NCBI GenBank assembly: GCA_018056375.1
Contig: JAGPFQ010000001.1
Span: forward strand, 247,361-311,360
DNA from: Candidatus Dojkabacteria bacterium
GTDB taxonomy: Bacteria > Patescibacteriota > Dojkabacteria > SC72
DNA: 64,000 nucleotides
Reading direction: 5' to 3'
The notes beneath the pieces are model-generated. The model did not search any database. It was not told where the DNA came from and saw only the letters and a program-made list of their open reading frames with translations. The translations under genes and the position numbers were made by a program. Shown in pieces: positions 5,852 through 56,971 of the stretch (position 1 is the first letter of the stretch; the number at the start of each line of letters is the position of its first letter).

Positions 5852-5859
5852 TTAATTTA

Positions 5860-7263: not shown

Positions 7264-7275
7264 ATAAAATATTTT

Positions 7276-8440
7276 TTAATTAGAATTTATATAGGATATT
7301 ATATCAAGTCTTTTGGTCAAAGGGCTTTCAAACTCTTTAAGAGAGATAATTAAAGTATTCTCAAGATCTATTACTTCATTTGTTTCTTCAGTCAGTTTAT
7401 TTATTAAATCTACTCCATCGGTGAGAGGTTGATTTTCTCCTATAAAGTCATCTTTATTCATGCAAAATATTTCAAGCATTAGAGGAGGTTTTTCAATTTT
7501 ACATATACTATCAATCTCTTCTGAAGAATGTTTAAAATCTTTTGTCAAATAACCTAAGCTCAACTCATATTTCCCTCCTATCTTTATATCTTCCATATTC
7601 TCTGTGGTTATTACAGTTCCATCCTCTTTGTCCTCTTTTTTGAAATGGAAGCCTCTCGTTTTAGCTGTAAACTTAACTTCCTTATCCTTAATCCTTGAAG
7701 TAAAAGTCATATAGATAAAATCTTCTTTAATTTCCTTATCTGTAAGTATTGTTTCAAGTATGATTATTTTTCCTGTTTCTTCTATAGTAAGAGCGTATTT
7801 ATCTACGGTTATATAGTTCTGAAAATCTTCTATATTCAGATAGTTGGTTTTAACGTTGGAATTATTCCACCTTGGTGGTTTATCTGTTTGTACAAAGGAG
7901 TTGTAATATTCTTCTTCGGTAGCATTCCTTATCTCTATATTGTTGTAATAGTAGTGACCATAATCTTTTGTTGAATACACAAAAGAGTATATTGTTGGTG
8001 TTAGTTTATCTTTCTCTTCTTTCCACTTATCTATTTCGTGCCATAGAATATTTTTCTCTTCTATACAGAAGTTCATCAACTCTGGCTGTTTATCTTTCTC
8101 TTTACTAGATAAAATCAGGATATTGAAACAATGATTTTCAATCTTATTGTCTAGTGGGGTTGAAGGATAAATAAGTGCATTACAACTTACTTTTATCACC
8201 CCCCCCCATTTTAATATGATCACAATCTTCCAACATCTCTTCGTACCTATCTAATGTAAACCACCTACCATATTTAATACCATTAGATATGACATCTTTG
8301 TAAAGAAGTGAAATACCACTAAATAGTAGAATGAAAAAAAAGATAGATAACAAGCGTATTGTATTGTTAGAAGCAACTACCTTCATTGAAAAAAAATTAT
8401 ACCACAAAACCTCCATTACACAAATTTCAATAATACTCAT
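7276..8440 (-). CDS. Single membrane-anchored protein gene split by a G9 homopolymer frameshift. Track ORFs 8180..8440 and 7276..8223 overlap at the tract. A G8 variant would give one ORF of about 388 aa.
   Basis: The upstream ORF ends KMGGGDKSKL* and the downstream ORF begins ...KWGGVIK. Both read through the same GGGGGGGGG run. The two frames differ by 1. The N-terminal piece carries a TM helix (LLSIFFFILLFSGISLL). Confidence 0.45.
8199..8207 (-). repeat. Homopolymeric G9 tract (C9 on the + strand) inside a coding region. It is a slipped-strand phase-variation candidate or a sequencing error.
   Basis: Read directly: ttttatcaccccccccccatttt. A 9-nt G/C run is extreme in this AT-rich sequence. 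Confidence 0.8.
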
Positions 8441-8446
8441 GTTTAC

Positions 8447-9655
8447 CTACTTTGATGTATAGTCATCAAAATAACCCTGTACTAAAACAACAGGAGTCCC
8501 TTTATCACCACTACCACTTGTAAGATCCATAAGGCTTCCTAGAAGGTCTGTGAGTTGTCTAGGAGTAGTTCCTAAAGAATTCTTTCCATTGTACTCCTTA
8601 CTCTTCTTTTCATTAATAGCATCCTCTACACACTTTTTAATATCACCCTTACCATCCCAATTTTCAGAAATCACTTTTAGTTTTACCTCTTTTGGTCTAC
8701 CAACTAACCCATCAGTATATGCAGGAGAAACAACAGGATCTGCTAGCTCCCATATTTGTCCTACAGGATCCTTAAATGCACCATCTCCATATATCATTAC
8801 TTCTATCTTTGCACCTGTTTTCTCAAATAGCTCCTTCTGTATCTTTCTTACCAAAACTTCACCCTCTTTTACCCTAGGAAACAATTTCATATTCCCCTCT
8901 CCTACTTTGTTAGCTCCAAGCAAACCATAGTCTACATTGTACCCTCTTCCTTCTACTACCTCATTACAGATATCCTCTAAACCATATACAACCTGTCCAC
9001 CACCTTCTTTAATCAATCTCTTTGTCTTTTTCCTGTTATGTATATCACAAACTAAAACATTCTTTGTAAAGTTTAATATATATTTAGGATTGTTTGAGAA
9101 GTGAGGAATAACTTGTCCTTCTTTTCCTAAACTTTTGTAGTATTCAATGTAGTCTAAACCTGTAAATTCGTGTTTAAAATCATAACCGAATACCTCTCTA
9201 AATTCTTTTTCATCAAAAGAGTCATTTAGACTTACATCTTCTATCATTTTTGGATCAAGAATATGATTGCCAACTTCATCTGATGGGTAGCTGAAAAGGA
9301 TATGAACCTTTTTACAAGCTTTAAGAATAGCTTCAAGTATCATGGAGAATCTGTTTCTACTTAGTATTGGAAAGACTAAACCTATATCTTCACTACCAAA
9401 CTTTTTCTCAATCTCTTTAGCAACATCATCTATACTTACATAGTTAGAGTCACAGATGGATACAACTGCTTCTGTTATTCCAACTACATCTTTGTTATTA
9501 AACTTAAAACCATCACTTTTAGATGCTCTAAGTAACGAATCAACAACAATATCTACAAGGTTATCACCATGTTTGATAATTGGGGTTCTGATTCCCCTTA
9601 CAACTGTTCCTGTGTTTCTCATTTGTATGATTTTAAAATTATTACAGCAGAACAA
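8447..9655 (-). CDS. CofE-like protein of the F420-0:gamma-glutamyl ligase family (long form).
   Basis: The N-terminus PIIKHGDNLVDIVVDSL...DVVGITEAVVS and the C-terminus GTPVVLVQGY resemble the CofE fold signatures. Family-level call only. Confidence 0.4.
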   Translation of the reverse strand: MFCCNNFKIIQMRNTGTVVRGIRTPIIKHGDNLVDIVVDSLLRASKSDGFKFNNKDVVGITEAVVSICDSNYVSIDDVAKEIEKKFGSEDIGLVFPILSRNRFSMILEAILKACKKVHILFSYPSDEVGNHILDPKMIEDVSLNDSFDEKEFREVFGYDFKHEFTGLDYIEYYKSLGKEGQVIPHFSNNPKYILNFTKNVLVCDIHNRKKTKRLIKEGGGQVVYGLEDICNEVVEGRGYNVDYGLLGANKVGEGNMKLFPRVKEGEVLVRKIQKELFEKTGAKIEVMIYGDGAFKDPVGQIWELADPVVSPAYTDGLVGRPKEVKLKVISENWDGKGDIKKCVEDAINEKKSKEYNGKNSLGTTPRQLTDLLGSLMDLTSGSGDKGTPVVLVQGYFDDYTSK

Positions 9656-42777: not shown

Positions 42778-44106
42778 ATGAAGAGAAGGAGGTTAGTTAT
42801 TACAATTGGAGTAGTACTCTTAACTGTTGTTTTGTTTGGATTTTTGGCTGGGTTTGGACAAAAGCAAGTATTAGCACAGATTAAATGTCCTTCACATATG
42901 AATCCTGTATCTCAACAATGCTACGATTATCTTAACCAGCAACTCCAAATCTTACAAAAACAACGAGGAGCAATCCAGCAGAAACTCAAGGAAGAAGATT
43001 ATCAACAACTTTCCTTGCAAGAAAAGATTAATTACATTAATGCTCAGATAATACAAACCGAAGAAGAGATAAAGTCTTTACAGATAGAAATAGCTGCTGC
43101 TGAAGTCGAAATAGGTATGCTAGAGAAAGAGATAAAAGAGAAAGGGGATATCGTTTCGGTTCTAAAACAAGAGATTAATAAACTTAGTGATTCTGTTCAT
43201 CAGAGAATTACAGAATCATATAAAAATTCTTTCATCAACCAGTTTGAATTCTTTTTAGATATAAAGAATCTTTCATCAGCATTGAGAAAAAGTAAGTATT
43301 TAGCAACAACTAGAAAACAAGACAGAGTAGCTGTAGAAAAATATGCAAACAATATAACAGAGTTAAAAAAACAGGAAGATATTCTTTCTAGGAAGAAAGA
43401 AACTTTAGAAGAGAAAAAGGATGAAGTAGAAGGAGAAAAACTAGAGATTGCCCAGAAAAAGGAAGAATTAAATTCTCAGAAAGGAGAACAAGCTAGGTTG
43501 TTAGCAGAGTCAAAGGTAAAAGGAGCGCAGTTAGCAGCTCAGTTACAGAGCTTAATTAGACAGACTAATGATGTAACAACACAGATTCAAGCAATAGCTA
43601 TGACCCTTTACAGAACTGGACAGATTCCTATTCATAAAAATGTTGTAGCAGGAGAAGTTTTGGGGTATCAGGGACACACAGGTTTCTCCTATGGCTCTCA
43701 CTTACATTTTAACTTGAGTGGTGTTTCTAAAGGACCTTTTGAGCTTGGATATTTTACTAATAGGAATGGTTTTATAACTAACGGTTCTGTACGTGCACCT
43801 CTTAAAGGAGGAGGAACTCTGACTCAGGGCTATCATAATGGCTATTCAATCGACCTTGTGGGAACATATAGTGCATGGAGTGGACAAAAGTACCATGTTA
43901 AGACAGGAGAGGTTTGCTGTAAAGGAAGTCTCGCATGGATGGGTTGTATCCCTGCTGGCAGTTACAACTTAAATGGAGAAGGAACTCCTGTGGTAGCAAT
44001 CAAGGCTGGAAAGGTAACAAGAGTCCAGACAGATCCATGTGGTGGAAAGTATGTAATTGTAGACCATGGTGGTGGCGAATTGTCTATGTACTTACATTTA
44101 CGCTAA
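42778..44106 (+). CDS. EnvC-like coiled-coil protein with an M23/LytM domain whose motif order appears circularly permuted.
   Basis: Long coiled coil. Then VAGEVLGYQGHTGFSYGSHLHFNL (normally the C-terminal M23 half) comes before YHNGYSIDL...GTPVVAIKAGKV...GGKYVIVDHGGGELSMYLHL (normally the N-terminal half). Confidence 0.65.
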   Translation: MKRRRLVITIGVVLLTVVLFGFLAGFGQKQVLAQIKCPSHMNPVSQQCYDYLNQQLQILQKQRGAIQQKLKEEDYQQLSLQEKINYINAQIIQTEEEIKSLQIEIAAAEVEIGMLEKEIKEKGDIVSVLKQEINKLSDSVHQRITESYKNSFINQFEFFLDIKNLSSALRKSKYLATTRKQDRVAVEKYANNITELKKQEDILSRKKETLEEKKDEVEGEKLEIAQKKEELNSQKGEQARLLAESKVKGAQLAAQLQSLIRQTNDVTTQIQAIAMTLYRTGQIPIHKNVVAGEVLGYQGHTGFSYGSHLHFNLSGVSKGPFELGYFTNRNGFITNGSVRAPLKGGGTLTQGYHNGYSIDLVGTYSAWSGQKYHVKTGEVCCKGSLAWMGCIPAGSYNLNGEGTPVVAIKAGKVTRVQTDPCGGKYVIVDHGGGELSMYLHLR

Positions 44107-44185
44107 CCTCTTCCTACCCTTTGCTAACTCCCCATAATTTTGATAAACTATTAGACATAATATAATTTATTTAACATATATATAA

Positions 44186-45046
44186 ATGGCTAGAACGAAA
44201 AAAAGTACTACAACAAAAACAAAAAGCATGCCCAAAAAGAGTACTGCTAAGTCTCCAAAAAAGACTGTAAAGAAGTCTACTACTAAGCCTAAGGTTACTA
44301 AGGCTAAAAAGGTAGAAAAAGTTGTCAAGAAGAAGATAGAAGTAAAGAATATTGTTGACAATCCAGTCGTAAGATTAATTACAAAGGTAGTAGTCTTTGT
44401 AATAGTAATAATAGGTGTTCTTACTCTTGCAGACCTAGGAGTACAGTACCTAAATAACAGTTACAGTGTAGCAGTTGTTAATGGGAAAAGAATATCAAAA
44501 CATAAATGGCATGATCTTCTTGAAAAATACTATGGCTCTTCTATTGCTCAAACATTGATTAATGACGAAATCATTAAACAGGAAAGCAAGAAAGCAAAGG
44601 TTACTGTATCTAAGGAGGATATACAGAAAGAATTAGATAGTATTATCCAGAGAATTGGTGGACAAGAAGCATACGAAGCTGCTCTTACAGCAAGTAATAT
44701 TACAGAAGAGGAAATTAAGGATCAAATTGAAGTACAAGCTCTCTATGACAAAGTTATCGGTCCTAGCATTACCTATACCGAAGAAGAACTAAAAGCATTC
44801 TTTGATCAGTATGGCACCATGCTATTCCCAACAGAGGCAGCAGCACTCAAAGAAGGTGAAAAATTGGATTATGAGAAATACAAAGATGAAACTAAAGCTA
44901 GATTTATTACAACAAAAGTACAAGAAAAACAGGCAGAATGGTTAAGTGGAATGAAAGAAGAGTATGTTGTCCAAGATAACAGTATTGAAAAACCAAAGTA
45001 CGGTTTCTTAACAATCATTAGAAATCTACTTACAAAGAAGAAGTAA
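44186..45046 (+). CDS. Membrane-anchored SurA-N/PpiD-like chaperone domain protein with a histone-H1-like Lys/Thr-rich N-terminal tail.
   Basis: ARTKKSTTTKTKSMPKKSTAKSPKKTVKKSTTKPKVTKAKK, then a TM, then a SurA N-terminal-like helical domain. No PPIase domain seen. Confidence 0.4.
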   Translation: MARTKKSTTTKTKSMPKKSTAKSPKKTVKKSTTKPKVTKAKKVEKVVKKKIEVKNIVDNPVVRLITKVVVFVIVIIGVLTLADLGVQYLNNSYSVAVVNGKRISKHKWHDLLEKYYGSSIAQTLINDEIIKQESKKAKVTVSKEDIQKELDSIIQRIGGQEAYEAALTASNITEEEIKDQIEVQALYDKVIGPSITYTEEELKAFFDQYGTMLFPTEAAALKEGEKLDYEKYKDETKARFITTKVQEKQAEWLSGMKEEYVVQDNSIEKPKYGFLTIIRNLLTKKK

Positions 45047-45109
45047 TAAGGTTTAGTAAATACGATTAAAAATATCAGGGAAGTAAAATTTCCTGATATT
45101 TTTTAATAA

Positions 45110-45679
45110 TTAAGCAGGTTCAACAATACCGTAAGAGCCATCTTTTCTTTTGTATACCAGAGATATCTTGTCTGTCTTGTTACTTCTAAAAAGATATGAG
45201 TCATAACCTAACATCTCCATCCTTTCAATTGCCTCACCCTCCTCTAGTGGAGACATATCTTCTATCTTTTTTCTTTTTGCAATCTTTGGTACATAATCAG
45301 AATAATCATCTATATGCTCCTCCTCTGGTTCTGTAGCATCTAACACCTCCCATGATTTACCACCACTCCAATGCTCCTTCCTATCTGAATACCTTGTTAA
45401 TCTTCTTACTAATGTATCTACTGCAAAATCAATATTAGCATACATATCCTCACCTCTCTCTGTTACTCTAATTGGTGTTTCTGGTAAATCTACTGAAATA
45501 TCTACTCTAAAATCTTCCTTAGTCCCCCTATTAGTCACTTGTTCTTTAAAAGCTACCTCTAAAGATATGGCATTTTCTAAAAGGTCTTCTCTTTTAGAAA
45601 GTTTCTCTAAAGCATAGTTCTTCATTGCTTCACTAGAATCCATACCTAGGAATGTAAACCTTACATCTTCTAACTTCAT
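45110..45679 (-). CDS. hpf: Ribosome hibernation promoting factor, long form.
   Basis: The N-terminal HPF/YfiA fold is MKLEDVRFTFLGMDSSEAMKNYALEKL...FRVDISVDLP. There is a C-terminal dimerisation domain. Confidence 0.75.
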   Translation of the reverse strand: MKLEDVRFTFLGMDSSEAMKNYALEKLSKREDLLENAISLEVAFKEQVTNRGTKEDFRVDISVDLPETPIRVTERGEDMYANIDFAVDTLVRRLTRYSDRKEHWSGGKSWEVLDATEPEEEHIDDYSDYVPKIAKRKKIEDMSPLEEGEAIERMEMLGYDSYLFRSNKTDKISLVYKRKDGSYGIVEPA

Positions 45680-45786
45680 AGAATATTTTATCTAATATTA
45701 TATATATCCATTTTATACTAAAACATCTTCTCTGTATACTCACTATTGCAGAAAATTAAAGTGAGGGATATAATGGGTACTGTTAA

Positions 45787-45858
45787 TCCGCGATAGCTCA
45801 ATGGTAGAGCAAACGGCTGTTAACCGTTCGGTTCCAGGTTCGAGTCCTGGTCGCGGAG
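45787..45858 (+). tRNA. tRNA-Asn(GUU).
   Basis: Acceptor is TCCGCGA/TCGCGGA (U1-A72). Anticodon loop is CTGTTAA. Discriminator is G. Confidence 0.85.
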
Positions 45859-45866
45859 CATTTTCC

Positions 45867-46931
45867 CTATATTAATAATGATCTAAAATCCCTGTTAAAA
45901 TCATCTAGAGATTCCTCTAGAGCATCAATATTTGAAACAATTCCTTTAGAGACTTCTACAGCACCTTGTTCCTCCTTAAGAATTTCAGCAGTACGCATCA
46001 TCCTAACAAACCAACCTGTAGCATCACGCCCTGCCCTATCAGCTGCAGTTCTAATTGCTATTAAAATATTTCTTCTTTCCATCTCCTCCCAATCACCTCC
46101 ATACAAAGGTCCTACAAACTTCTTCTCTTGGCGTAACATTTGAAGATACTCCTTTGCTTTCTTGAGATTGAATTTTTGAGATATAAAATACTGTGCTAGT
46201 CTTACCTGCCTATGCTTCCTATCTTCATCTGTAATCTCACTACCATCCTCCTTTTTAATCAAATCATCAATATTTGCCAATAATATTGCTTGTGTATATG
46301 GAAGAAGTTTCTGATCAACTAATTCTTGGATAATGGAATCTACACCTTCAACATATTTAATAGCATCACTAACTGTTTTAGGACTTCTACCAACTCTCCT
46401 AGCAAACTCTGCCATAGATAACTTCTTACCACTCTCCTCACGAACAACTTTCAGTTTATGCCATAAATCATGAATAACTCTTGCATCCTGTGCTGCTGTC
46501 ATCTTGTTTTGCAGATTCTCAGACATCTGAATCTCAACTATTTCCTCTGGAGTTAATTCCCTATTAGCTACATTAACCATCACAAACATAGCTTCTTCAT
46601 CTCTTTCCTCTCTTCTTTTGTTAATTAATAATATAGCTTTGTATCTATGTTGACCTGCTATCAAGACAACAAACTTAGAACCATCTTCCAGTGTCTTCTC
46701 ATATCCAATACAAGGTTGTAACTGTCCATGAGTCTCGATATTATCTGCTAAGTTCTCCGTAAATTCTTCATCATGAGGACGAATATTATCTGCAAGAACA
46801 ATATCCTTTACATTTACCATGAATGTTTTATACTGAACATCCTCAGTAGTCTCACTACTCTCACAAGAACCAAAATGTTTAATTTCCTTAAAAGAAGCAC
46901 CAAGGCTTTCAATATCGCCAGAATCTGTCAT
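45867..46931 (-). CDS. Orphan ParB-family protein (ParB_N nuclease-fold domain plus HTH) with no adjacent ParA.
   Basis: VKDIVLADNIRPHDEEF...ETHGQLQPCIGY...VVLIAGQHRYKA. HTH is SMAEFARRVGRSPKTVSDAI. Confidence 0.55.
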   Translation of the reverse strand: MTDSGDIESLGASFKEIKHFGSCESSETTEDVQYKTFMVNVKDIVLADNIRPHDEEFTENLADNIETHGQLQPCIGYEKTLEDGSKFVVLIAGQHRYKAILLINKRREERDEEAMFVMVNVANRELTPEEIVEIQMSENLQNKMTAAQDARVIHDLWHKLKVVREESGKKLSMAEFARRVGRSPKTVSDAIKYVEGVDSIIQELVDQKLLPYTQAILLANIDDLIKKEDGSEITDEDRKHRQVRLAQYFISQKFNLKKAKEYLQMLRQEKKFVGPLYGGDWEEMERRNILIAIRTAADRAGRDATGWFVRMMRTAEILKEEQGAVEVSKGIVSNIDALEESLDDFNRDFRSLLI

Positions 46932-47029
46932 AAATATTCCCCAACAAAATATTTGCTATATATCTTACCACATTATAATATCTATTACCTAACATACAAA
47001 AGATTTAAAATATCTGCTATCATAAATAC

Positions 47030-49753
47030 ATGAATATATTAAAGAAAAAGGTAGGTTTTGGAGCAGGAATTCTTTTTTCAATTTTACTCAGTATTGGTAT
47101 TGTTTTTCTATCTATAAAAAATAAAGAATTAATTTACATTATAGAAAGACAACCATTTGATGTTGTAGTTGCTAATCTTACTCCTACTTCTGCAGAGGTT
47201 TACTGGAAAACCTTAAAACCTACAAATAGTATTCTATCCTATCGAGAAAGAAGCAGTTCAGCCTTTTACACAGATGCTCTTGATTCTGATTTATACAAAG
47301 ACATGAAAGATGGAAACTATATCAACAAAGTTAAAATTAGTAATCTAAAACCAGAAAAGAGTTATATCTATCGCATTAAGTCTGCAGAGTACAAATGGGA
47401 AGATAATTTTGCTTTTAAAACAAAATCTATTGATGAGAAAATAGACTATCCACATATAAAGAGTGGTGATAGTAATATTGGTGCATTTATCTTAATCCAG
47501 AAAGATGAAGAGAATAGAATGCTCTATACAGGAATAGATAAAACTTGGGCTTTAGATTTTGATAGTGATGACTATACAGTTAAAGAGTATGCTCAATTCC
47601 TACCATCAATGTACTTAAGGGATGAGCTTCAAGCAACCATTTTAAATATTATTCAACCTGTATCTGCAAGAAGCGGACCTAACTGTATGACAAATATTAA
47701 AAGGAATGATGATCAATACTATCCTAAACCTTCAGGACTCACTGAACTAATGGAAACTAGATCTTCTGGACAAATTTTAATTGCAGGATGCATAGGTCAT
47801 CATACAGAAGAATGCTATGATGATACATATTGTAGGTCTGTTGAGGCTGGAATAAATCCAGCAATCACTTTAACTCTTTGGGTTCATGAAAGTGCTGCTA
47901 GTATGTATGCAGCAGAGGGTACAAGACCATTCTGGACACATACAGAAGACTTTGGTATTCATAAAGACAGTATCAAAAACAATTTCAGTGCACAATTGGA
48001 TCACTTACTTAGCGTACAGCTGGATCCTAGTTACATCTCAGGATATTGTACCAACAAAGGTTTATCTGATGACCAGAGATGGGCAACAAAATATGCTTGT
48101 GGGTATTGTGAACGTCCTGCAGGGTCTTCCCTACAACCAGGACAACGTTGTTATGAACCAACGGTAACAGGAAAAGAATATATTTCGCAAATAAAATCAT
48201 ATTACTCTTTGCTAGGAGGTGCCGGTTCCCTACCTTCATGGCCTTGGAAAGTAACAGCTAATCAAAATGCATGTGATAGATCTAGTCAAACAGAGAATCA
48301 AGTATTTAGAGAGTGTGATGGTACTAGGACAGGTTCAAATCCATCACCATCGCCTAGCCCATCACCTTCACCAACTCCTCCTTCATACTGTTCTTCTAAC
48401 CCACCTGGTAAGATGGATATTAGAATTGGAGAAACATGTAGGGATGGAGGTGGGTGTGAATGTTTTAAAGGTGAGTTTAAACCTAGTAATTATCTCCATG
48501 ATGTACCGTGTGGAGAAAAATGTACAGAAGACAGTCCTCAACCATCACCGAGTCCATCGCCTTCACCGAGTCCATCGCCTTCACCAAGTCCATCGCCTTC
48601 ACCGAGTCCATCGCCTTCACCAAGTCCATCGCCTTCACCAAGTCCGTCGCCATCACCAACCCCTCCTCCTTCATACTGTTCATCTAACCCACCAGGTAAA
48701 GAGGATATTAAGATAGGCGAAACATGTAAAGATGGAGGTGGATGTGAATGTTTTGATGGAGAATTCAAACCTGAAAACTATATCCATGATGTACCATGTG
48801 GAGAAGTATGTGAAGCTATAGTTAAAAAAGAAATACATATAACAGATAAGGATGTTATTTGTGATGATGAGAATGGTTGTATCTGTATATATCCAAATGG
48901 CGATAAAAAGGAGGCTAACGAAGATCAAATATGTACAGTTGACGGAAGAGTTATAGAAAACCCAGATAAGGGTAAAACTGTACTCGAAATAACAGATAAA
49001 GATGAATATTGTAAAGATAGTAGAGGATGTGTATGTTATTGGGATAATAAAAAAGTTAAAAAAGAAACCGAAAAAGATTATACATGTACTGTTGACCAAG
49101 AAGTTATAAAAACAGAGAAAATTTGTTGTTATGATAACGAAAGACTCTCAACACAAATGCCTTATGATTGTGAAGGAGTCATTTATGATAATATACCAGA
49201 AGATTTTTGTAGGATTGAAACTACAAAATACAATGTTAAAAAAGGATATAGTTTCATAAACCCTCTTCTGTTAATAGGAGAACAAGAATATACTCCAAAA
49301 AGTGCCCACGATTTGATAAATATATCAGATAAAAGGATTACTACCGTTGGTCTATTTGAAAATAGTCAGTGGACAAAGGTTGTTGAGTTAAAAGATGGAA
49401 AAATACACGGAACTGACTTTGTACTAGAGAGTGGTAAAACATATATGCTAATATCTCAACATCCTGTTGAATTTTCAGTTACTGGAGTAAGAATACCTGC
49501 ACCCAATATCAAAGATATGGTTGGTTGGAATCTAATACCATCATATACCATATCGAAAGATAGCAACGATGCTAAGGAGTTACTAGGTAAAGTAGAATAC
49601 AATTCAATGCACCAGATAGCACAATGGAGCATGATTAAAAGTCACTTCTTGTATACAATAAAGGATTCAAAAAACAATATCTTTGGTGATGATATTAAAA
49701 TCAATGATAGTGAAGGAATCTTCATTAGAATGAAACAGAATGAACCTATCTAG
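47030..49753 (+). CDS. Giant secreted protein of 907 aa. It has an N-terminal TM or signal segment, an FN3-like domain, a Cys-rich region, two copies of a (SP)n-linked CECF module and two copies of an ITDKD...C.C module.
   Basis: DVVVANLTPTSAEVYWKT...YIYRIKS is FN3-like. SYCSSNPPGK.DI.IGETC.DGGGCECF.GEFKP.NY.HDVPCGE occurs twice. ITDKD..C.D..GC.C...CTVD..VI occurs twice. Confidence 0.55.
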   Translation: MNILKKKVGFGAGILFSILLSIGIVFLSIKNKELIYIIERQPFDVVVANLTPTSAEVYWKTLKPTNSILSYRERSSSAFYTDALDSDLYKDMKDGNYINKVKISNLKPEKSYIYRIKSAEYKWEDNFAFKTKSIDEKIDYPHIKSGDSNIGAFILIQKDEENRMLYTGIDKTWALDFDSDDYTVKEYAQFLPSMYLRDELQATILNIIQPVSARSGPNCMTNIKRNDDQYYPKPSGLTELMETRSSGQILIAGCIGHHTEECYDDTYCRSVEAGINPAITLTLWVHESAASMYAAEGTRPFWTHTEDFGIHKDSIKNNFSAQLDHLLSVQLDPSYISGYCTNKGLSDDQRWATKYACGYCERPAGSSLQPGQRCYEPTVTGKEYISQIKSYYSLLGGAGSLPSWPWKVTANQNACDRSSQTENQVFRECDGTRTGSNPSPSPSPSPSPTPPSYCSSNPPGKMDIRIGETCRDGGGCECFKGEFKPSNYLHDVPCGEKCTEDSPQPSPSPSPSPSPSPSPSPSPSPSPSPSPSPSPSPSPSPSPTPPPSYCSSNPPGKEDIKIGETCKDGGGCECFDGEFKPENYIHDVPCGEVCEAIVKKEIHITDKDVICDDENGCICIYPNGDKKEANEDQICTVDGRVIENPDKGKTVLEITDKDEYCKDSRGCVCYWDNKKVKKETEKDYTCTVDQEVIKTEKICCYDNERLSTQMPYDCEGVIYDNIPEDFCRIETTKYNVKKGYSFINPLLLIGEQEYTPKSAHDLINISDKRITTVGLFENSQWTKVVELKDGKIHGTDFVLESGKTYMLISQHPVEFSVTGVRIPAPNIKDMVGWNLIPSYTISKDSNDAKELLGKVEYNSMHQIAQWSMIKSHFLYTIKDSKNNIFGDDIKINDSEGIFIRMKQNEPI
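48534..48659 (+). repeat. Tandem repeat of about seven copies of an 18-nt unit (tcaccRagtccatcgcct). It encodes about 19 Ser-Pro dipeptides. A shorter (SP)5 run lies at about 48341-48373.
   Basis: Read directly from the sequence. The unit alternates ccg/cca at one position. Confidence 0.8.
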
Positions 49754-51491
49754 CTTCCTTAAGTAACTTCAACAGTAGATCTCCTTGTTCTTTAGTAGCA
49801 AGATTAACTTTAAAATCCTTACTCATATATATCGGTACTACCTTTGTTTGAACATGTTTACCTTCATAGAAATAATGAGTTAGAACAAGTCCCTGTCTAG
49901 TACCAATCCATATATACTGATCAAAGAAAAGATTACCTAAACCATAGAAAATAACACCATCCTTGTATAGTTCATAAGTTTGGGGTTGATGAGCCTGTGT
50001 ACCAACAACTATATTCGCACCCAAATCAATAGCTTTTCTAAAAACACCCTTCTGGTCAGGAGAACTAAGAGGTTTGTAACAGATAGGATAAACAACATCA
50101 CCATCAGGATAACAATAACACTCTTGGAATTGGAAGCTAACAATAACTATATCAGCATTCTTCTTTGCCTCCGCGATATCCTTCTTTACCTTCTCCTCAC
50201 TATATGCATTTGCTCCTGATTTTTCCTTTCCTGCCAATGGACCATAATTATTAAGCATACTATCATAATAATTGTAACCAAGAAAAGCTATCTTACTACC
50301 CTTAACATCCTCATACAAAATCTTACTCGCATCCTCACTATCTAACCCACCACCAAAATACCTCCACCCTAAATCCTTGTAAGTTTCTATAGTACTAGCA
50401 CTATACTTACTCCCATAATCATTATTATGATTCCCTGTAAGCTCTACAATATCTACCCCACTAAGTTTTAGAACTTCAATATGTTCAGGCTTAGTACAAA
50501 AAGTCATACTAGCAGTAGGAGTACAACCAGGAACAAAAGAAGCCTCATTAGAAACATGTGTCAAATCAGCATCAGCCAAAAACTTCCCAATACCATCTGC
50601 TGGATAAGTATTACTACCAACACTAATCATCTTCCTTGCCAAATTTCTTGAAATAGCAACAACACCACTCATATTAACTTTAGCTAGCTTCTCAGTATCA
50701 AAAGAACCCTCGCTAGAATCAATATGTTGGGTAATAATAGGTAGAATAAAAGAATCTTCATCTTTTACAGATGAGTAAAATCTCAAACCAATACCACCTG
50801 CTCTATCATCCAGATAATACTTACCTTCAAAAGGTATTACCTTTAAATCATAACCAAGAGTATCAAAATTTACTAAAGCAATATTCTCATCACTTTCAGC
50901 AAGCTTTGCAACCAATTTCTCTCTGCTATCTAAAATATTTACAGATATACCATACTGCTCCTCTAAAAAATCCTTTAATTCACCATCTAACATATATACA
51001 TCTTTAATTACAAAGTCCTCCTTACTTATATTTGTTGTTAATGAATAGAGGTGACCAACAGGAATAAAATCCTTACTATACACAACCTCTTTACCTTCTC
51101 CACCTGCTAAAGAAATAACAAAATCTCCTCCCTTATCTTTAAAAGCAAATCTCTTTTTTCCATTAAACTCAATATCACTTAAACCTTCGACAAACAACTT
51201 CTTAAGTTCTTCAGGTACATCCTTCTCAAAAGATATAGTAAAAGTATCATAAATATATGCTTTTCTTTTTAAACTAAAAAGAAAACGAGAGCTACTAATG
51301 AAAGCTTCCTTGTTGGAAAAATATAGAAATATGATTACAAAAAAAGAAGCAAGTAAAAACAAAGAGAGCAGTACTCTCTTACTAAATACTTTCACAGAAC
51401 CTGTCTCTAAATTCTTTCTTTTAGGTCTTCTCCCCTTCTCTTTTCCCCCTTCTATGTTCAGTTCTAATCTAGAAAAATCGTGATTAATCAT
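49746..51491 (-). CDS. CapA/PgsA-family metallophosphatase-fold protein, poly-gamma-glutamate/capsule type, with an N-terminal TM.
   Basis: MSGVVAISRNLARKM...DADLTHVSNEASF...GNHNNDYG resemble CapA motifs. Confidence 0.6.
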   Translation of the reverse strand: MINHDFSRLELNIEGGKEKGRRPKRKNLETGSVKVFSKRVLLSLFLLASFFVIIFLYFSNKEAFISSSRFLFSLKRKAYIYDTFTISFEKDVPEELKKLFVEGLSDIEFNGKKRFAFKDKGGDFVISLAGGEGKEVVYSKDFIPVGHLYSLTTNISKEDFVIKDVYMLDGELKDFLEEQYGISVNILDSREKLVAKLAESDENIALVNFDTLGYDLKVIPFEGKYYLDDRAGGIGLRFYSSVKDEDSFILPIITQHIDSSEGSFDTEKLAKVNMSGVVAISRNLARKMISVGSNTYPADGIGKFLADADLTHVSNEASFVPGCTPTASMTFCTKPEHIEVLKLSGVDIVELTGNHNNDYGSKYSASTIETYKDLGWRYFGGGLDSEDASKILYEDVKGSKIAFLGYNYYDSMLNNYGPLAGKEKSGANAYSEEKVKKDIAEAKKNADIVIVSFQFQECYCYPDGDVVYPICYKPLSSPDQKGVFRKAIDLGANIVVGTQAHQPQTYELYKDGVIFYGLGNLFFDQYIWIGTRQGLVLTHYFYEGKHVQTKVVPIYMSKDFKVNLATKEQGDLLLKLLKEAR

Positions 51492-51590
51492 AGATGCATG
51501 TTACCATAAATGAGAGGACTCTTCACTTCCTTGCAACTATGGGTTGAACAATGATATAATATAGTAGGAACTGCCTAACATTATTTATTA

Positions 51591-52193
51591 TTGCAAATGA
51601 GTTCCATGTGGTTAAAAAGCAGAAAGTTACTAAGTATAATTAGTGCTGTAATATTTCTAGGAGTCATCTTCTCTTCAGTCTCTCAAAGAATGCCTGTTTC
51701 AAAGCTTTATGGTGATTTAACTGAAAATACAGGGTCTACATATACTCGATTTAATGCTGAAGATTTAATGGATTCCATTGAAATGGAGGAAATAATAGTT
51801 GCTTCTGAGGAAAAAATACATCCTACAGAAGATGTAAGAATTGTTAAAGTAAGAAATTATCTTACCAAAAGAAGGTCTCCTTTAGCAGAGTATGCACATG
51901 AATTTGTAAAAGCGGCAGATCATTACGGTATAGATTACAGAATTGTAGCTGCCATATCTATAGTCGAGTCTGGTGGTGGAAAAAAGAACTTTAGACCCTA
52001 CAATGCTTGGGGATGGGGTAAGAGAGGTTTTAAAAACTGGACAGATGGAATATGGAAAGTATCTGCTGGTATTGCCAAATATTACTCCAGAGGTTTAAAA
52101 ACACCTCAATTAATGGCTAGATGGTACTGTCCTCCAAATGCAGATTCATGGGGAAGAAAAGTCCAAGGTGTTATGAATGTAATAGGGATGTAA
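51591..52193 (+). CDS. Membrane-anchored putative peptidoglycan hydrolase of the glucosaminidase family.
   Basis: AADHYGIDYRIVAAISIVESGGGKK...YNAWGWG resembles the glucosaminidase AILESGWG motif. Confidence 0.35.
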   Translation: MQMSSMWLKSRKLLSIISAVIFLGVIFSSVSQRMPVSKLYGDLTENTGSTYTRFNAEDLMDSIEMEEIIVASEEKIHPTEDVRIVKVRNYLTKRRSPLAEYAHEFVKAADHYGIDYRIVAAISIVESGGGKKNFRPYNAWGWGKRGFKNWTDGIWKVSAGIAKYYSRGLKTPQLMARWYCPPNADSWGRKVQGVMNVIGM

Positions 52194-52195
52194 AA

Positions 52196-53245
52196 CTAAT
52201 CCTTGTAGTATGAAAGTAATTTATTCAACCATTTCAAGAGAGGTCCTCTTTTAGAAACAAAGATATCGTAAAGAACATCTGTTAATTTATCACTATCATG
52301 TCTAACAAGACTTCTTTCTAGAGTATCTCCTTTCTCTCTCTTGATAGGCTCTGTCGCAACCAAATCCTTTCTAATTATTTCCCCACTAAAATTCTCTTCA
52401 CTAAGGTCATCTTTCATAACATGTTCACCTTTCTCTACATATCTCTTGTATGCTGCCTGAGGAATCTTACCATTATTAATTAATACATAATCTAAATCCC
52501 TCCCTATATATTCAGTTATAATATCAACACACTGAGAATGGGAACGATTCCTAGTCTGTCCTTTCTTACTAATCAAATTTGATATGTATATAAGTTTTGC
52601 CTTAGATCTAATTAATTCCTCTTTAATACCCTTCACAACTAAATTAGGTAGTGTTGTAGTGAAAAGGTCTCCTGGACCAAAAAGAATATAGTCTGCTTTT
52701 TTAATAGCATCTAGTGCTTGTTTCGTAGCTTTTGCACTAGGTTTTAAAGTAATAGAGGATACATTCATATCACTCTCAGGTTCATCAATTAGATGCTCCC
52801 CTTCTATTACACTCCCATCAGGATACTTTGCTACTAATCTAACATCATCCAAAGTTACAGGAATTATTTCTCCAGTAATTCCAAACATTGTTTTAAACAT
52901 CTCAATAGCCTCCATCTCGCTACCAAGGATATCTGTCATTGCTACCATGAGTAGATTACCCAAAGTGTGTCCCTTAATGCCTTCTCCAGATGCAAATCGA
53001 TAAAGAAACAACTTTCTCAAAACCTCATTATTCCCACTATCATACAATGCAAGAAGTGACTTCCTAACATCACTAAGAGGTAGTAAACCAAACTCATCTC
53101 TCATAACTGCATTGCTTCCTCCATCATCCATCATTCCAACAATCACAGAAAGTTTTAAATCTCTTCTTTTCTTTAACCCTTCTAAAACAACGGTACTTCC
53201 CGTACCGCCTCCAATCAAAAGAATATTCATACCAAAGTATATCAT
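52196..53245 (-). CDS. YvcK/CofD-like UPF0052 family protein, gluconeogenesis factor-like.
   Basis: NILLIGGGTGSTVVLEGLK N-terminal motif. Typical length. Confidence 0.6.
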   Translation of the reverse strand: MIYFGMNILLIGGGTGSTVVLEGLKKRRDLKLSVIVGMMDDGGSNAVMRDEFGLLPLSDVRKSLLALYDSGNNEVLRKLFLYRFASGEGIKGHTLGNLLMVAMTDILGSEMEAIEMFKTMFGITGEIIPVTLDDVRLVAKYPDGSVIEGEHLIDEPESDMNVSSITLKPSAKATKQALDAIKKADYILFGPGDLFTTTLPNLVVKGIKEELIRSKAKLIYISNLISKKGQTRNRSHSQCVDIITEYIGRDLDYVLINNGKIPQAAYKRYVEKGEHVMKDDLSEENFSGEIIRKDLVATEPIKREKGDTLERSLVRHDSDKLTDVLYDIFVSKRGPLLKWLNKLLSYYKD

Positions 53246-53287
53246 TTCTGTGGTATAATGTAACAGTTAATATATTAAACTTCCTTT

Positions 53288-53812
53288 ATGAATTTGAAAG
53301 TCGGTTCAAAAGTTTTTTACCCATTACATGGTGCAGGTTGGATTAGAAAGGAGAAAGAGATTGAGTTTGGTGGTGAAAAAAAGAAGTATTTTGAATTTGA
53401 ATTAATTACTAGTCTTCTTAGTATCTCTACTCCCGTAGAGAATATAGAGAAATTAGGAATTAGACCAGTTTTACCAGCTAAAGAGATAAAGGAGAAGATT
53501 AAAGTATTAAAAAAGACTCCTACTGTAGATCCAAAAGTGAAAGATTTTAATATGATGTTAAGTACCTTTAAAGAATTAGAGGAGAGTGCGAATATAGAGG
53601 ATACTATAAAGATATTGCAGTTTTGTAACTTTGCTAAAAAACATAGAGAAAAAGAAGGTAGATTAATCCCTATTAGTATTGAGAAACAATTAGAATCTGC
53701 TATTAAGAATATTGTAGGAGAATTAGCAGTAGCAAGTGGTACTACCTTAGAGAAAGCTACCCAAGAATTTACAAAGATTACTGGTATTGAAACAGAGGTT
53801 AGTAAGGATTAG
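53288..53812 (+). CDS. CarD/CdnL-family RNA polymerase-binding regulator.
   Basis: LKVGSKVFYPLHGAGWI matches the CarD N-terminal Tudor-like domain. Confidence 0.6.
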   Translation: MNLKVGSKVFYPLHGAGWIRKEKEIEFGGEKKKYFEFELITSLLSISTPVENIEKLGIRPVLPAKEIKEKIKVLKKTPTVDPKVKDFNMMLSTFKELEESANIEDTIKILQFCNFAKKHREKEGRLIPISIEKQLESAIKNIVGELAVASGTTLEKATQEFTKITGIETEVSKD

Positions 53813-53813
53813 G

Positions 53814-54077
53814 TTAATCAGGATATTCCCCTAAACTTTCTAGAATACTCTCAATTCTATCTATTTGTGTGAAAAGGGTGTCATCTCCATCATCTCTTAC
53901 TTCATCTCCCAATTCCAGCAATATGCTTTTCGCAAGATCTAGATGATTATCACCTTTACCAGAGACATCTAAACGTTCAGCTAATTTTTCTAGCATTAAA
54001 CATTTAGATTGCAAATATTCACCAAAAATTTTATCTGCTTCTATATTCCCTGTTTCAGGCATTATCATAATATTCAA
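53814..54077 (-). CDS. Small acidic hypothetical protein downstream of ileS.
   Basis: ORF only. Two-nt gap after ileS. Confidence 0.25.
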   Translation of the reverse strand: MNIMIMPETGNIEADKIFGEYLQSKCLMLEKLAERLDVSGKGDNHLDLAKSILLELGDEVRDDGDDTLFTQIDRIESILESLGEYPD

Positions 54078-54079
54078 AA

Positions 54080-56971
54080 TTAATTAATCCCTACCCCTAT
54101 CTTCACACCCATAACCTCTATCTCTTCATCTGTTGTTATATCATCCATCTCAACACTCTTTGCATGGAACTCTGGCAAGTTCTCATCAACATATTTTTGG
54201 ATAAGATTCTTTGTATCTTTCTCCTCTATCTTAATATGAAGAGTTACCATATCATCAACTTTCAAACCTTTCTTCTTTCTTAAATCCTTGTATCTTCTCA
54301 TAAATTCATTAACAAAAGCCTCATTCTTTAATTCATCTGTTAAATTACAATCAATTGTAACAAAATTACTACCCTCACCTTCTGTGTTCATTCCTTCTCC
54401 TTTCTCAGCTTTCTCAGAGAAGAATATCTCCTTAACATTAATCTCTTCCTTAACAATCTCTCTTAACTCCCCATCTTTAATATTCACAAAAGCTTTAGAA
54501 AGAGGTTGTCTTAAATTCAATCTAACATTCTCTCTAACCTTTAAACCATATGATGCAATATCTCTTACTCTCTGCATATCTTCAAGTATTTTAGATTCAA
54601 TTTCATCTTCATTAACGGTAGGATAATCATCTAAATGTACAGACTCTACACTCTCCATACTCATATTTACAACAAGATTCTGATACATCTCCTCTGCTAT
54701 GAAAGGTGTAAATGGAGCTAAAAGTTTAGAAAGAGTAACTAAACTGTAATGAAGTGTACCAATTGCATCACTATCTCCACTCTTAAACCTGTTTCTTGAC
54801 CTTCTGATATACCACTGTGAGAGGTCTTTACAATATTCCTCAATATCTCTTGAAGCAGTAGCCATATTGTATTCATCTAAACACTTGTTAACCTTAAATA
54901 CTAAATCATTTGTTTTAGCTACCATCCATTTATCCATCAAATGTGTTAGTTTCTTGACATCATATTTCTTCCAATCCCAATCATGTAACTTAGCATATGT
55001 TACAAAGTAGTTGTATGAATTCCAAAGCTGAATGTAGAATCTTCTCCTCACTTCTTCCAAAGTTCCCCATCCAAACCTCATATTCGAACCAATAGATGCT
55101 GTTGCATAGTTCCATCTTAAAATATCAGAACCCATCTTGTCTGCTGCATCATCAAACTTTACATAGTTAGGTTTAGTCTTACTCATCTTCTCATTCTTCT
55201 CATCTCTAACCTCTGCAAAACACATTACTTCTTTGTATGGTGCTTTCTTCTCAAAAACAACACCAAATACAAGCATTGAGTAGAACCACAACCTAATCTG
55301 CTCTATCATCTCAATTACTAATTCTGCTGGGAACCATTTCTCCCAATATTTCTTGTCATCAAGATATGCAAGCGTAGAGAAAGGTACAACTCCTGCATCA
55401 AGCCAACAGTCTCCTACATCTGTTACTCTCTGTACACTCTCACCACACTTAGGACATTTAATCTCAATTTCATCAATCCAAGGTCTGTGAACATCATGAA
55501 GTTTCTCTACCAACTCTGGTTTTACTGCCAACTCTTTCAGTTCTTCTAAACTACCTACTACATGAAGATGACCACACTTCTCACATTCATAGAAAGGAAG
55601 GGCTAAACCGTAAAATCTCTTTCTACTAATCATCCAATTACCCATACTATCTAACCAACCTTGCATTCTCTTACCTGCATAGTCTGGTAACCAATTAACA
55701 TCTTTTGCTGCTTCTTTAAGTTCATCTTTAATCTTTAGTACATCAATGAACCAGTTATCTTCTAACTTAAACAAACACTTTGTATTACATCTCCAACAGT
55801 GAGGATAGCTATGAGTAAAATCTTCTGTTTTGTACAAAAGACCTTGCTTCTTTAGATCTTCAATTACTTCATCTGCTACATCATGTGCATATTTACCATC
55901 TAAGAATCCAAAACCTTCTGTAAAATGACCTGTGGAATCAAGAGGTGAGATAATGTCTGCACCTAACTGCTGACCTAGTTCAAAGTCTTCCTGACCACAA
56001 CCTGGTGCAATATGTACAACACCTGACCCTGTCTTTGAATCAACCAAATCCCACTCAACAATACTATGCTTAATGCCCTTCTGTGCAGGAATATCTAAGA
56101 GAGATTCATACTCTTTACCAACTAATTCCTTAATATCTATCTCTTCAATATCATTCAAACCTAATCGTTTAGCACTATCTGCACCTAAATATACTGTTTT
56201 ATCATCAATTTTTGTCTTTACATATCCTAATTCTGGATTTACAGCTAAAAGAACATTAGATGAGAGAGTCCAAGGAGTAGTTGTCCATGCTAGAACATAT
56301 TCCTCTTTTTTATCCTTATTCTTCAACTTAAAGAATACATACACCGATTTATCTGCTATCTCTTTATATCCATCTGCTTGTTCATGTTGAGAGAGTCCTG
56401 TCTCACATCTTGGACACCATGTTGTTGCTGACCTATCTTTGTACAAGAGTCCTTTCTCATGACAAAGTTGAAGGAATTTCCAAATATACAAGTTATTAGT
56501 CTTAGACATTGTATAGTAGCTATTCTCCCAATCCATGAACATTCCTAATCTCTTAGATTGTTCTGTCTGAACACCAGCATATTTGTTTACCCTAGCCATA
56601 CATTGGTTTGTGAAGTTGTCTAGACCATAGTCTTGAATATCTTTCTTACAATTAAAACCTAAATCTCTCTCTACACCTACCTCAACCCAGAGTCCTTGGC
56701 AGTCAAAACCATTTTGGAACCTTTGTTCAAATCCTTGCATATTCTTAAATCTCTGGACAATATCTTTGTATGTCCTCCCCCATGCATGATGTACTCCCAT
56801 TGGATTGTTTGCAGTAATTGGTCCATCTATGAAAGAGAAGTGTTTTTCTGCTCCTCTATTTCTTTCAACATATTTTTTTTCAATATCATTATCTTCCCAG
56901 AACTTCATAATATCTTTTTCCATCTGTACAAAGTCTTGGTTTGGTTTTACTGGTTTAAGGTTTTTACTCAT
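54080..56971 (-). CDS. ileS: Isoleucine-tRNA ligase.
   Basis: Class I HIGH variant PMGVHHAWG. KMSKS variant EKMSKTK. CP1 editing domain. Zn-finger WCPRCET...CEKCGH. 963 aa. A T-box upstream has an AUC specifier candidate. Confidence 0.8.
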   Translation of the reverse strand: MSKNLKPVKPNQDFVQMEKDIMKFWEDNDIEKKYVERNRGAEKHFSFIDGPITANNPMGVHHAWGRTYKDIVQRFKNMQGFEQRFQNGFDCQGLWVEVGVERDLGFNCKKDIQDYGLDNFTNQCMARVNKYAGVQTEQSKRLGMFMDWENSYYTMSKTNNLYIWKFLQLCHEKGLLYKDRSATTWCPRCETGLSQHEQADGYKEIADKSVYVFFKLKNKDKKEEYVLAWTTTPWTLSSNVLLAVNPELGYVKTKIDDKTVYLGADSAKRLGLNDIEEIDIKELVGKEYESLLDIPAQKGIKHSIVEWDLVDSKTGSGVVHIAPGCGQEDFELGQQLGADIISPLDSTGHFTEGFGFLDGKYAHDVADEVIEDLKKQGLLYKTEDFTHSYPHCWRCNTKCLFKLEDNWFIDVLKIKDELKEAAKDVNWLPDYAGKRMQGWLDSMGNWMISRKRFYGLALPFYECEKCGHLHVVGSLEELKELAVKPELVEKLHDVHRPWIDEIEIKCPKCGESVQRVTDVGDCWLDAGVVPFSTLAYLDDKKYWEKWFPAELVIEMIEQIRLWFYSMLVFGVVFEKKAPYKEVMCFAEVRDEKNEKMSKTKPNYVKFDDAADKMGSDILRWNYATASIGSNMRFGWGTLEEVRRRFYIQLWNSYNYFVTYAKLHDWDWKKYDVKKLTHLMDKWMVAKTNDLVFKVNKCLDEYNMATASRDIEEYCKDLSQWYIRRSRNRFKSGDSDAIGTLHYSLVTLSKLLAPFTPFIAEEMYQNLVVNMSMESVESVHLDDYPTVNEDEIESKILEDMQRVRDIASYGLKVRENVRLNLRQPLSKAFVNIKDGELREIVKEEINVKEIFFSEKAEKGEGMNTEGEGSNFVTIDCNLTDELKNEAFVNEFMRRYKDLRKKKGLKVDDMVTLHIKIEEKDTKNLIQKYVDENLPEFHAKSVEMDDITTDEEIEVMGVKIGVGIN

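Follow-up and report, generated by a model that had tools for sequence, protein, structure and literature searches.

A predicted membrane-anchored envelope protein of Candidatus Dojkabacteria with a lysozyme-like domain and a variable stalk of X-Pro linkers and cysteine modules

In-frame dipeptide arrays and changes in the copy number of protein modules are well known in other bacteria. In the Clf-Sdr proteins of staphylococci, the R-region serves to hold a functional domain at a distance from the cell. The R-domain of two of these proteins, ClfA and Fbl, is encoded by 18-bp repeats, of which Fbl has between 9 and 52 copies, and this variation is ascribed to slipped-strand mispairing (PMC6533592). 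Here we analyse a gene with an 18-nt array of an analogous kind, found in a genome of the candidate phyla radiation (CPR): it occupies positions 47030..49753 of a 64,000-nucleotide window (the whole stretch of DNA that was analysed) of a Candidatus Dojkabacteria bacterium (assembly GCA_018056375.1, contig JAGPFQ010000001.1, positions 247,361 to 311,360 of the forward strand). The window has a G+C content of about 33% and a high coding density.

A first, sequence-only reading of this stretch had described the gene product as a giant secreted protein with an FN3-like N-terminal domain, a Cys-rich region in which two modules (A and B) each occur twice, and an expandable Ser-Pro (SP) linker. The domain, the modules and the linkers all proved to be there. 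"Giant" is overstated for 907 amino acids (aa), and the protein is more likely to be anchored than secreted. Neither the family to which the protein belongs nor its lysozyme-like and conserved C-terminal domains had been recognised in the first reading.

We consider it rather probable that the repeated region forms the variable stalk of an envelope protein that has several domains, is anchored in the membrane, lies outside the cytoplasm and carries a lysozyme-like domain, probably a glycosidase, and a tip domain. From the membrane outward, the order would be the anchor, an FN3-like domain, a small beta-sandwich, the disulfide-rich lysozyme-like domain, the stalk and the C-terminal tip.

The full-length protein search returned 22 collinear full-length relatives of 671–919 aa (P0001–P0022), the closest of them at 42–47% identity. 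Nine of the P00xx relatives align over 98–99% of the query with 35–42% identity (E-values down to 2.3e-239), and the nearest protein among 5.8 billion clusters is only 42–51% identical. We define the family as these 22 proteins plus about 48 clusters, its members having a collinear N-terminal part (transmembrane (TM) anchor, FN3-like domain, beta-sandwich and WxHES domain), a C-terminal GWNL.P domain and a syntenic locus. The window protein has all of these features, and the hidden Markov models (HMMs) of both domains match just one open reading frame (ORF) in the window, 47030..49753. When one genome per species was scanned with a sequence pattern, 11 loci were found, all of them in Candidatus Dojkabacteria (WS6) or CPR metagenome-assembled genomes, some of which carry the label Saccharibacteria or unclassified bacterium. 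In the set of sequences recovered, the family is restricted to Candidatus Dojkabacteria (CPR/Patescibacteria), and the public names of its members are "fibronectin type III domain-containing protein" and "hypothetical protein". The libraries searched contain no description of the family, its lysozyme-like signature, its Cys modules or its tip domain.

Some sequences were considered and set aside. The weak full-length matches P0023–P0036 share only their S/T-P composition with the query, except P0027, which has a true lysozyme-like domain. The 1013-aa ORF at 2810-5851 (minus strand), presumably the other giant protein of the first reading, has no similarity to the target and no match in Pfam or NCBIfam. 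Searches with the alignment of the C-terminal domain and with the A2-B1-B2 segment returned zero matches, not even the known members, which we take to reflect a word-index limit and not absence.

In the family alignment, a conserved N-terminal part (aa 1-435) and a conserved C-terminal domain (aa 696-907) flank a middle that cannot be aligned, and it is this middle that changes. The stalk measures between 48 and 507 aa, with 0–3 A modules, 0–5 B modules and 0–60 X-Pro residues (DP, NP, TP, EP or SP). Two further types of stalk Cys module (CWY...CTIRWK and GRLIL..C.YSKGCVC) occur in the family, and the number of cysteines is even in most of the proteins listed. The window protein has the most X-Pro residues (60) of all proteins compared. 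According to local HMMs, modules A and B are seen only in proteins that have the full family architecture.

Close relatives show how the stalk changes. In a clade whose members (P0001–P0012 and L002) are 98–100% identical over the N- and C-terminal parts, all the indels fall within the stalk: one or two X-Pro dipeptides are gained or lost in either linker, P0012 lacks one unit made of an A module and its linker, and P0011 has two additional modules. In a second lineage, P0205 corresponds to P0010 minus exactly 73 aa, that is, one A module and an NP linker, the two proteins being 99.5% identical elsewhere. All the length variants seen among the homologues are in frame, and the 18-nt unit of the window gene is inside the coding sequence; the marks of phase variation would be a unit with a length not divisible by 3 or a repeat in a promoter. 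Slippage here would give length variation, not ON/OFF switching.

The two module types have different histories. Five proteins have two A copies, which are 84–96% identical to each other in four of them and 57% identical in the fifth (P0022), while A copies from different lineages are 49–81% identical, and first copies do not resemble one another more than they resemble second copies. This lack of positional orthology implies either independent duplications or homogenisation by gene conversion. In the case of module B, the second copies of different lineages are 62–67% identical to each other, compared to 50% between the first and second copies within the window protein; by this comparison of sequences, the duplication of B is old and its copies have retained positional orthology. 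Taken across the family, the dynamics of the stalk, as read from aligned sequences, are well supported.

In the window protein, 20 of the 34 cysteines are located in the stalk (10 are in the N-terminal part and 4 in the C-terminal domain). The 47-aa module A (SYCSSNPPGK..DI.IGETC.DGGGCECF.GEFKP.NY.HDVPCGE.C) is present in two copies that share 40 of 47 residues (85%) and whose local alignment scores 268, compared to 31.6 +/- 6.5 in 2000 shuffles. A repeat search at the DNA level finds 149 nt at 83% identity, the copies being 288 nt apart. Their divergence (dS 0.74, dN 0.11, dN/dS 0.15) shows that they are old paralogues under purifying selection, and not a collapsed or mis-assembled repeat. 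The copies of module B (ITDKD..C.D..GC.C...C.VD..VI) are more distant, and their alignment scores 112 compared to 27.4 +/- 5.8, a value that none of the 2000 shuffles reaches. Modules A and B have in common a core C-x-D-x2-3-G-C-x-C, which is visible at the protein level (1–2 of 2000 shuffles give as good an alignment); the 28-nt core of the second B copy is 82% identical to that of the second A copy, and the module HMMs of A and B cross-match each other. Neither module has a match in Pfam or the PDB. The cysteines of the modules would form disulfide bonds.

The two SP runs are of unequal length, as the sequence-only reading had noted. The first (aa 438-447, nt 48341-48370) has 5 dipeptides with irregular codons. 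The second (aa 505-542, nt 48542-48655, 114 nt) has 19, and Tandem Repeats Finder (TRF) detects at 48545-48659 an array of period 18 with 6.4 copies, 94% matches and a score of 195. The unit, TCACCR-AGTCCA-TCGCCT, codes for SPSPSP using three different Ser codons; since its length is a multiple of 3, slippage would alter the length of the linker and not the reading frame. Just three positions vary along the array, and they anchor its register. The linkers of the homologues are only loosely repetitive (TRF scores of at most 86), and the much greater regularity of the window array fits a recent expansion by slippage. The idea that the array is expandable is supported by sister lineages, which do gain and lose X-Pro dipeptides and modules; for the window array itself, a change in length would be an extrapolation from them, since no sequence from the same species was found in the collections searched. 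The proposal that the array is prone to collapse during assembly is not a strong concern, since short reads of 150 nt are common and the array is shorter than that.

We propose that the stalk would act as a length-adjustable spacer made of 4- or 6-Cys modules separated by X-Pro linkers. Unequal recombination or gene conversion between units of linker and module would add, remove and homogenise whole modules, while replication slippage in the X-Pro-coding arrays would change the length of the linkers in frame. In the window genome, the 18-nt unit would have expanded recently to about 6 copies, presumably by slippage. The muralytic domain would lie near the membrane, and the tip would be held away from it by a disulfide-stapled X-Pro stalk. 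Given the standard rise of a polyproline-II helix, about 3.1 Å for each residue, the 38 residues of the longer SP run could by themselves bridge a distance of about 12 nm.

A small beta-sandwich and, before the stalk, a helical domain are seen in the AlphaFold2 model, in which the mean predicted local distance difference test (pLDDT) value is 69.6, with most of the helical core above 80. The helical domain has the lysozyme-like alpha-helical fold of the glycoside hydrolase (GH) 73/GH23 superfamily. It holds 10 cysteines and the motif W284-x-H-E287-S288-x-x-S291-x-Y293 ... D307-F-G309-I ... Q322. Glu287 (codon 47888-47890) is invariant in the family alignment. In 122 distant relatives (window numbering), W284, E287, S291, D307 and G309 are conserved at 100%, and S288, Y293, F308 and Q322 at 92–99%. 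The domain is widespread: an exhaustive profile search matched it to at least 335 clusters (50% identity level). About 48 of the locally matched proteins also have the N-terminal part of the family; about 120 others have the helical domain only, usually near the C-terminus of proteins of 600–1600 aa. In 4 of the 10 such proteins that were scanned, it is followed by a Peptidase_M23, CHAP or C39-like peptidase domain, and these peptidases are classic partners of muralytic glycosidases. On the strength of the fold, the conserved motif and the fusions to peptidoglycan peptidases, we take the domain to be, probably, a peptidoglycan glycosidase whose candidate catalytic acid is Glu287, a proposal derived from the model and the alignments; enzymatic activity is moderately supported. 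Separately, we note that the signature W-x-H-E-S-x-A-S-N-Y ... D-F-G-I ... Q (P0053–P0183) has no Pfam model and may merit being defined as a separate family.

At the other end of the stalk, the C-terminal domain has four invariant cysteines and the motifs GWNL.P, QW, F.YT and IFI. In its model, residues 50-259 have a pLDDT of about 90, and this model has no fold match in BFVD, nor does the domain have a sequence match in Pfam or the PDB. It would be located at the distal tip, as a probable binding or positioning module. One Dojkabacteria genome (L005) contains two tandem paralogues of the family (4642-6792, 716 aa, and 6830-9439, 869 aa). In their N-terminal halves, to which the enzyme domain belongs, they share 30% identity, but their last 262 aa, which comprise a B module and the C-terminal domain, are 95% identical. 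This pattern, seen in the sequences of one locus, suggests that the tip has undergone gene conversion or segmental exchange.

As for the other end of the protein, the hydrophobic segment that follows a KKK n-region is the only one of its kind in the protein: with a 19-residue Kyte-Doolittle window the maximum is 2.4, and only windows that start at aa 7-14 stand out. It is 21-23 residues long, has no obvious cleavage motif and is kept in all homologues, so that the protein is probably anchored to the membrane and extracytoplasmic rather than released, as far as topology can be predicted from such features. The FN3-like assignment is based on PF16656 (Pur_ac_phosph_N, FN3-like clan), which matches aa 45-131 with an E-value of 7.9e-12 and 46 bits (cutoff 30) and which all 22 relatives also carry in precomputed annotations. 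The model PF00041 (fn3) gives 17.7 bits, under its cutoff of 25, so that the domain is FN3-like only through the related model.

Several observations weigh against this interpretation of the protein. The helical domain has no match in Pfam, NCBIfam or PDB profile searches, and no sequence-level link to any GH family was found; phmmer and hmmsearch runs against the PDB with three profiles, which covered the central and C-terminal domains, were likewise negative. In ten family members, PF01832 (Glucosaminidase, GH73) gave no match at E<=10, and hhalign gave a probability of 0.2% for the pairing of the domain with the glucosaminidase-like protein encoded nearby; similarly, PF01464 (SLT, GH23) gave no match at E<=10, and a diverse profile of 22 sequences had no match in the PDB. 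The model of the second B module has a pLDDT below 45, so that its fold and disulfide pattern cannot be read from it. Regarding the variation of the stalk, two exact-pattern scans of metagenome contigs, one with a flanking 22-mer and the other with two units of the array, found no match, and some single-module variants from metagenome assemblies (P0205; A copies 96% identical) could be collapsed repeats and not true alleles. Lastly, there is no obvious Shine-Dalgarno sequence before the ATG at 47030 (region 46932-47029), and the upstream sequence is AT-rich (...ATCATAAATACATG).

The positions of the domains, linkers and modules, and of the neighbouring genes, are collected in Table 1.

Table 1. 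Parts of the protein and neighbouring genes, in positions of the window
Feature	Amino acids	Position	Strand	Remarks
Whole coding sequence	907 aa	47030..49753	+	one ORF
Hydrophobic segment after KKK n-region	8-30	47051..47119	+	predicted signal anchor / TM helix
FN3-like domain	41-131	47150..47422	+	PF16656
Small beta-sandwich	~143-190	47456..47599	+	
Helical domain, lysozyme-like fold	~215-432	47672..48325	+	
X-Pro linker 1	437-451	48338..48382	+	NP-(SP)5-TPP, irregular codons
Cys module A, copy 1	452-498	48383..48523	+	6 Cys, core C-x-D-G-G-G-C-E-C
X-Pro linker 2	502-547	48533..48670	+	holds the 19-dipeptide SP run
Cys module A, copy 2	548-594	48671..48811	+	
Cys module B, copy 1	599-642	48824..48955	+	4 Cys
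Cys module B, copy 2	649-693	48974..49108	+	copy kept positionally across the family
Conserved C-terminal beta-rich domain	696-907	49115..49750	+	
Coiled-coil M23 peptidase		42778-44106		
tRNA-Asn		45787-45859		
ParB/Noc-like gene		45867-46931	minus	TIGR00180, E 4.5e-10, below cutoff
PGA_cap/CapA-like protein		49746-51491		convergent, 8-nt overlap with the 3' end of the target
Glucosaminidase-like protein		51591-52193		weak: PF01832, E 0.0034, below cutoff
YvcK		52196-53245		

The neighbourhood of the target is conserved and comprises genes for the M23 peptidase, a SurA-like protein, the ribosome hibernation factor HPF, the target, PGA_cap, the glucosaminidase-like protein, YvcK, a 174-aa protein and IleRS; those for the M23 peptidase, PGA_cap, the glucosaminidase-like protein and YvcK are cell-envelope genes. 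The ParB/Noc-like gene, which is next to tRNA-Asn, has no counterpart in the syntenic loci of Dojkabacteria, and at this place L005 has an unrelated ORF of 169 aa; the interval that separates HPF/tRNA-Asn from the target thus resembles a site of variable insertions. Within the target, the ORFs at 48267-48716 (+), 48680-49099 (-) and 47886-48167 (+), of 93–149 aa, are alternative-frame readings of the coding sequence (with HRVHRL repeats, for example), and there is no evidence that they are genes. A promoter scan was uninformative (8 promoter-like sites compared to 13.3 expected), and the scan found no terminator-like site between the convergent target and PGA_cap genes.

The comparison with the close genome L008 shows that this neighbourhood does not diverge uniformly. 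At the protein level, the identity is 100% for HPF, 93% for the SurA-like protein and 90% for IleRS, versus 43% for the target, 50% for the M23 peptidase, 56% for the glucosaminidase-like protein and 61% for PGA_cap. The nucleotide identity over the region compared (43972-55619) is a mosaic with sharp breakpoints: values of 94.7% over 43972-45866 and of 89.5% for IleRS contrast with 62–74% over 47.8-53.8 kb (target, PGA_cap, glucosaminidase-like and YvcK genes), with about 62% in the target itself; the N-terminal part of the M23 peptidase gene is at about 67%. The stalk differs altogether, since that of L008 has two B modules and no X-Pro residue, versus two A modules, two B modules and 60 X-Pro residues in the window protein. 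It thus seems that the envelope genes are replaced, or diverge, as a block. The mosaic and the paralogues of L005 suggest that envelope genes recombine and are under diversifying pressure, which fits an action on the cell's own wall and an action directed at a host alike.

The latter action deserves consideration. The protein may be a weapon or adhesin with which a presumed episymbiont attaches to a host and breaches its wall, the tip recognising the host, the stalk being matched to the host envelope, and the whole being shaped by selection for host range or by phages. The target does diverge far faster than its neighbours, in a mosaic region, and stalk architecture is wholly different between close genomes. 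All cultivated Patescibacteria are reported as obligate episymbionts (PMC11623550), and for other Patescibacteria it has been proposed that proteins which bind peptidoglycan and degrade the wall are factors of parasitism (PMC10936435). However, the gene is at a fixed position of the core genome, amid housekeeping genes and genes for the cell's own envelope (M23, YvcK, PGA_cap), so that maintenance of the cell's own wall fits equally; the catalytic domain is proximal to the anchor and not at the distal tip; and in the literature found, there is neither an identified host nor a cultured representative of Dojkabacteria. The near-identical tips of the L005 paralogues would also fit a partner in the cell's own envelope. 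We therefore regard a host-directed role as unlikely. Quite unlikely, in our opinion, is the more specific idea that the protein is a muralytic tether of tunable reach to a partner cell, whose stalk and tip would be determinants of specificity diversified by slippage, unequal recombination and allele replacement. If this were true, the region at 47-54 kb would resemble the surface-antigen loci of pathogens as a hypervariable island of envelope genes, and new folds would be expected for the Cys modules and for the C-terminal domain.

A different objection concerns catalysis. The lysozyme-like domain could merely bind glycans or be an inactive scaffold, the protein being a spacer or a tether, for an S-layer or capsule for example. 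The lack of a sequence match to any catalytic family argues for this, as do the stalk and tip domains, which have no enzymatic signature, and the convergent, overlapping PGA_cap gene, whose product is involved in capsule synthesis. We find it very doubtful all the same, since the Glu-Ser and Asp-Phe-Gly motifs are conserved over the 122 distant relatives and the domain recurs in fusions with peptidoglycan endopeptidase domains, and this combination of motif and fusions is the pattern of an active muralytic enzyme. It is highly improbable that the duplication of the modules, the long SP run, or both, were made or distorted by mis-assembly: tandem repeats are a known hazard for assembly, but the A copies differ, in frame, at 17% of their 149 nt, with the dS and dN/dS given above, the architecture with two A modules recurs in independent assemblies of other lineages, and the SP array is short, in frame and anchored by its three variant positions. 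The stalk of a membrane-anchored, probably muralytic envelope protein is the explanation that we retain.

The protein is a candidate envelope effector with a testable catalytic residue, Glu287, a widespread peptidoglycan-hydrolase-like domain that is outside Pfam and two apparently new types of module. It also shows that, even with a reduced genome, a CPR bacterium retains a surface protein that changes in length and architecture from one near-identical strain to the next. For strain typing, the stalk could be used as a marker, and it may hint at genes that are under selection by hosts or phages.

How does this protein compare with those already described? The lysozyme-like domain differs from those of the GH73 enzymes (FlgJ, LytB, AtlA) and GH23 enzymes (MltD, MltF, Slt) in having its own signature, W-x-H-E-S-x-A-S-N/M-Y ... 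D-F-G-I, and 8–10 conserved cysteines. Like the Pro-Thr/Ser-rich linkers of secreted glycoside hydrolases (the "PT boxes" of cellulases and chitinases), the linkers of the window protein are low-complexity X-Pro sequences between folded extracellular domains. As a matter of fact, the only matches of the full-length search outside the family are linkers of this kind, in a GH18 chitinase, beta-helix proteins and others. Composition is all that they have in common; the window linker is part of a repeated unit of linker and Cys module and is encoded by a near-perfect nucleotide array.

The resemblance to the Clf-Sdr proteins ClfA and Fbl is found at the DNA level: in both cases an 18-bp unit codes for three dipeptides with alternating Ser codons. 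On the other hand, the dipeptide is SP and not SD, the anchor is N-terminal and is not a C-terminal LPXTG motif, Cys modules interrupt the stalk, and the lineage is CPR. The window protein has neither LPXTG nor a hydrophobic tail (its C-terminus is ...FIRMKQNEPI), and the Pfam scan found no MSCRAMM domain or A-domain. The likeness is an analogy and would concern the mechanism only.

The evolution of the stalk is also reminiscent of modular autolysins and adhesins made of LysM, choline-binding or Ig-like repeats. As in these surface proteins, the copy number of the modules differs between close strains, and paralogous modules of one protein are closer to each other than orthologous ones (concerted evolution). 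What sets the window protein apart is the nature of the modules, Cys-rich units of 45–50 aa that are seen only in this family of Dojkabacteria.

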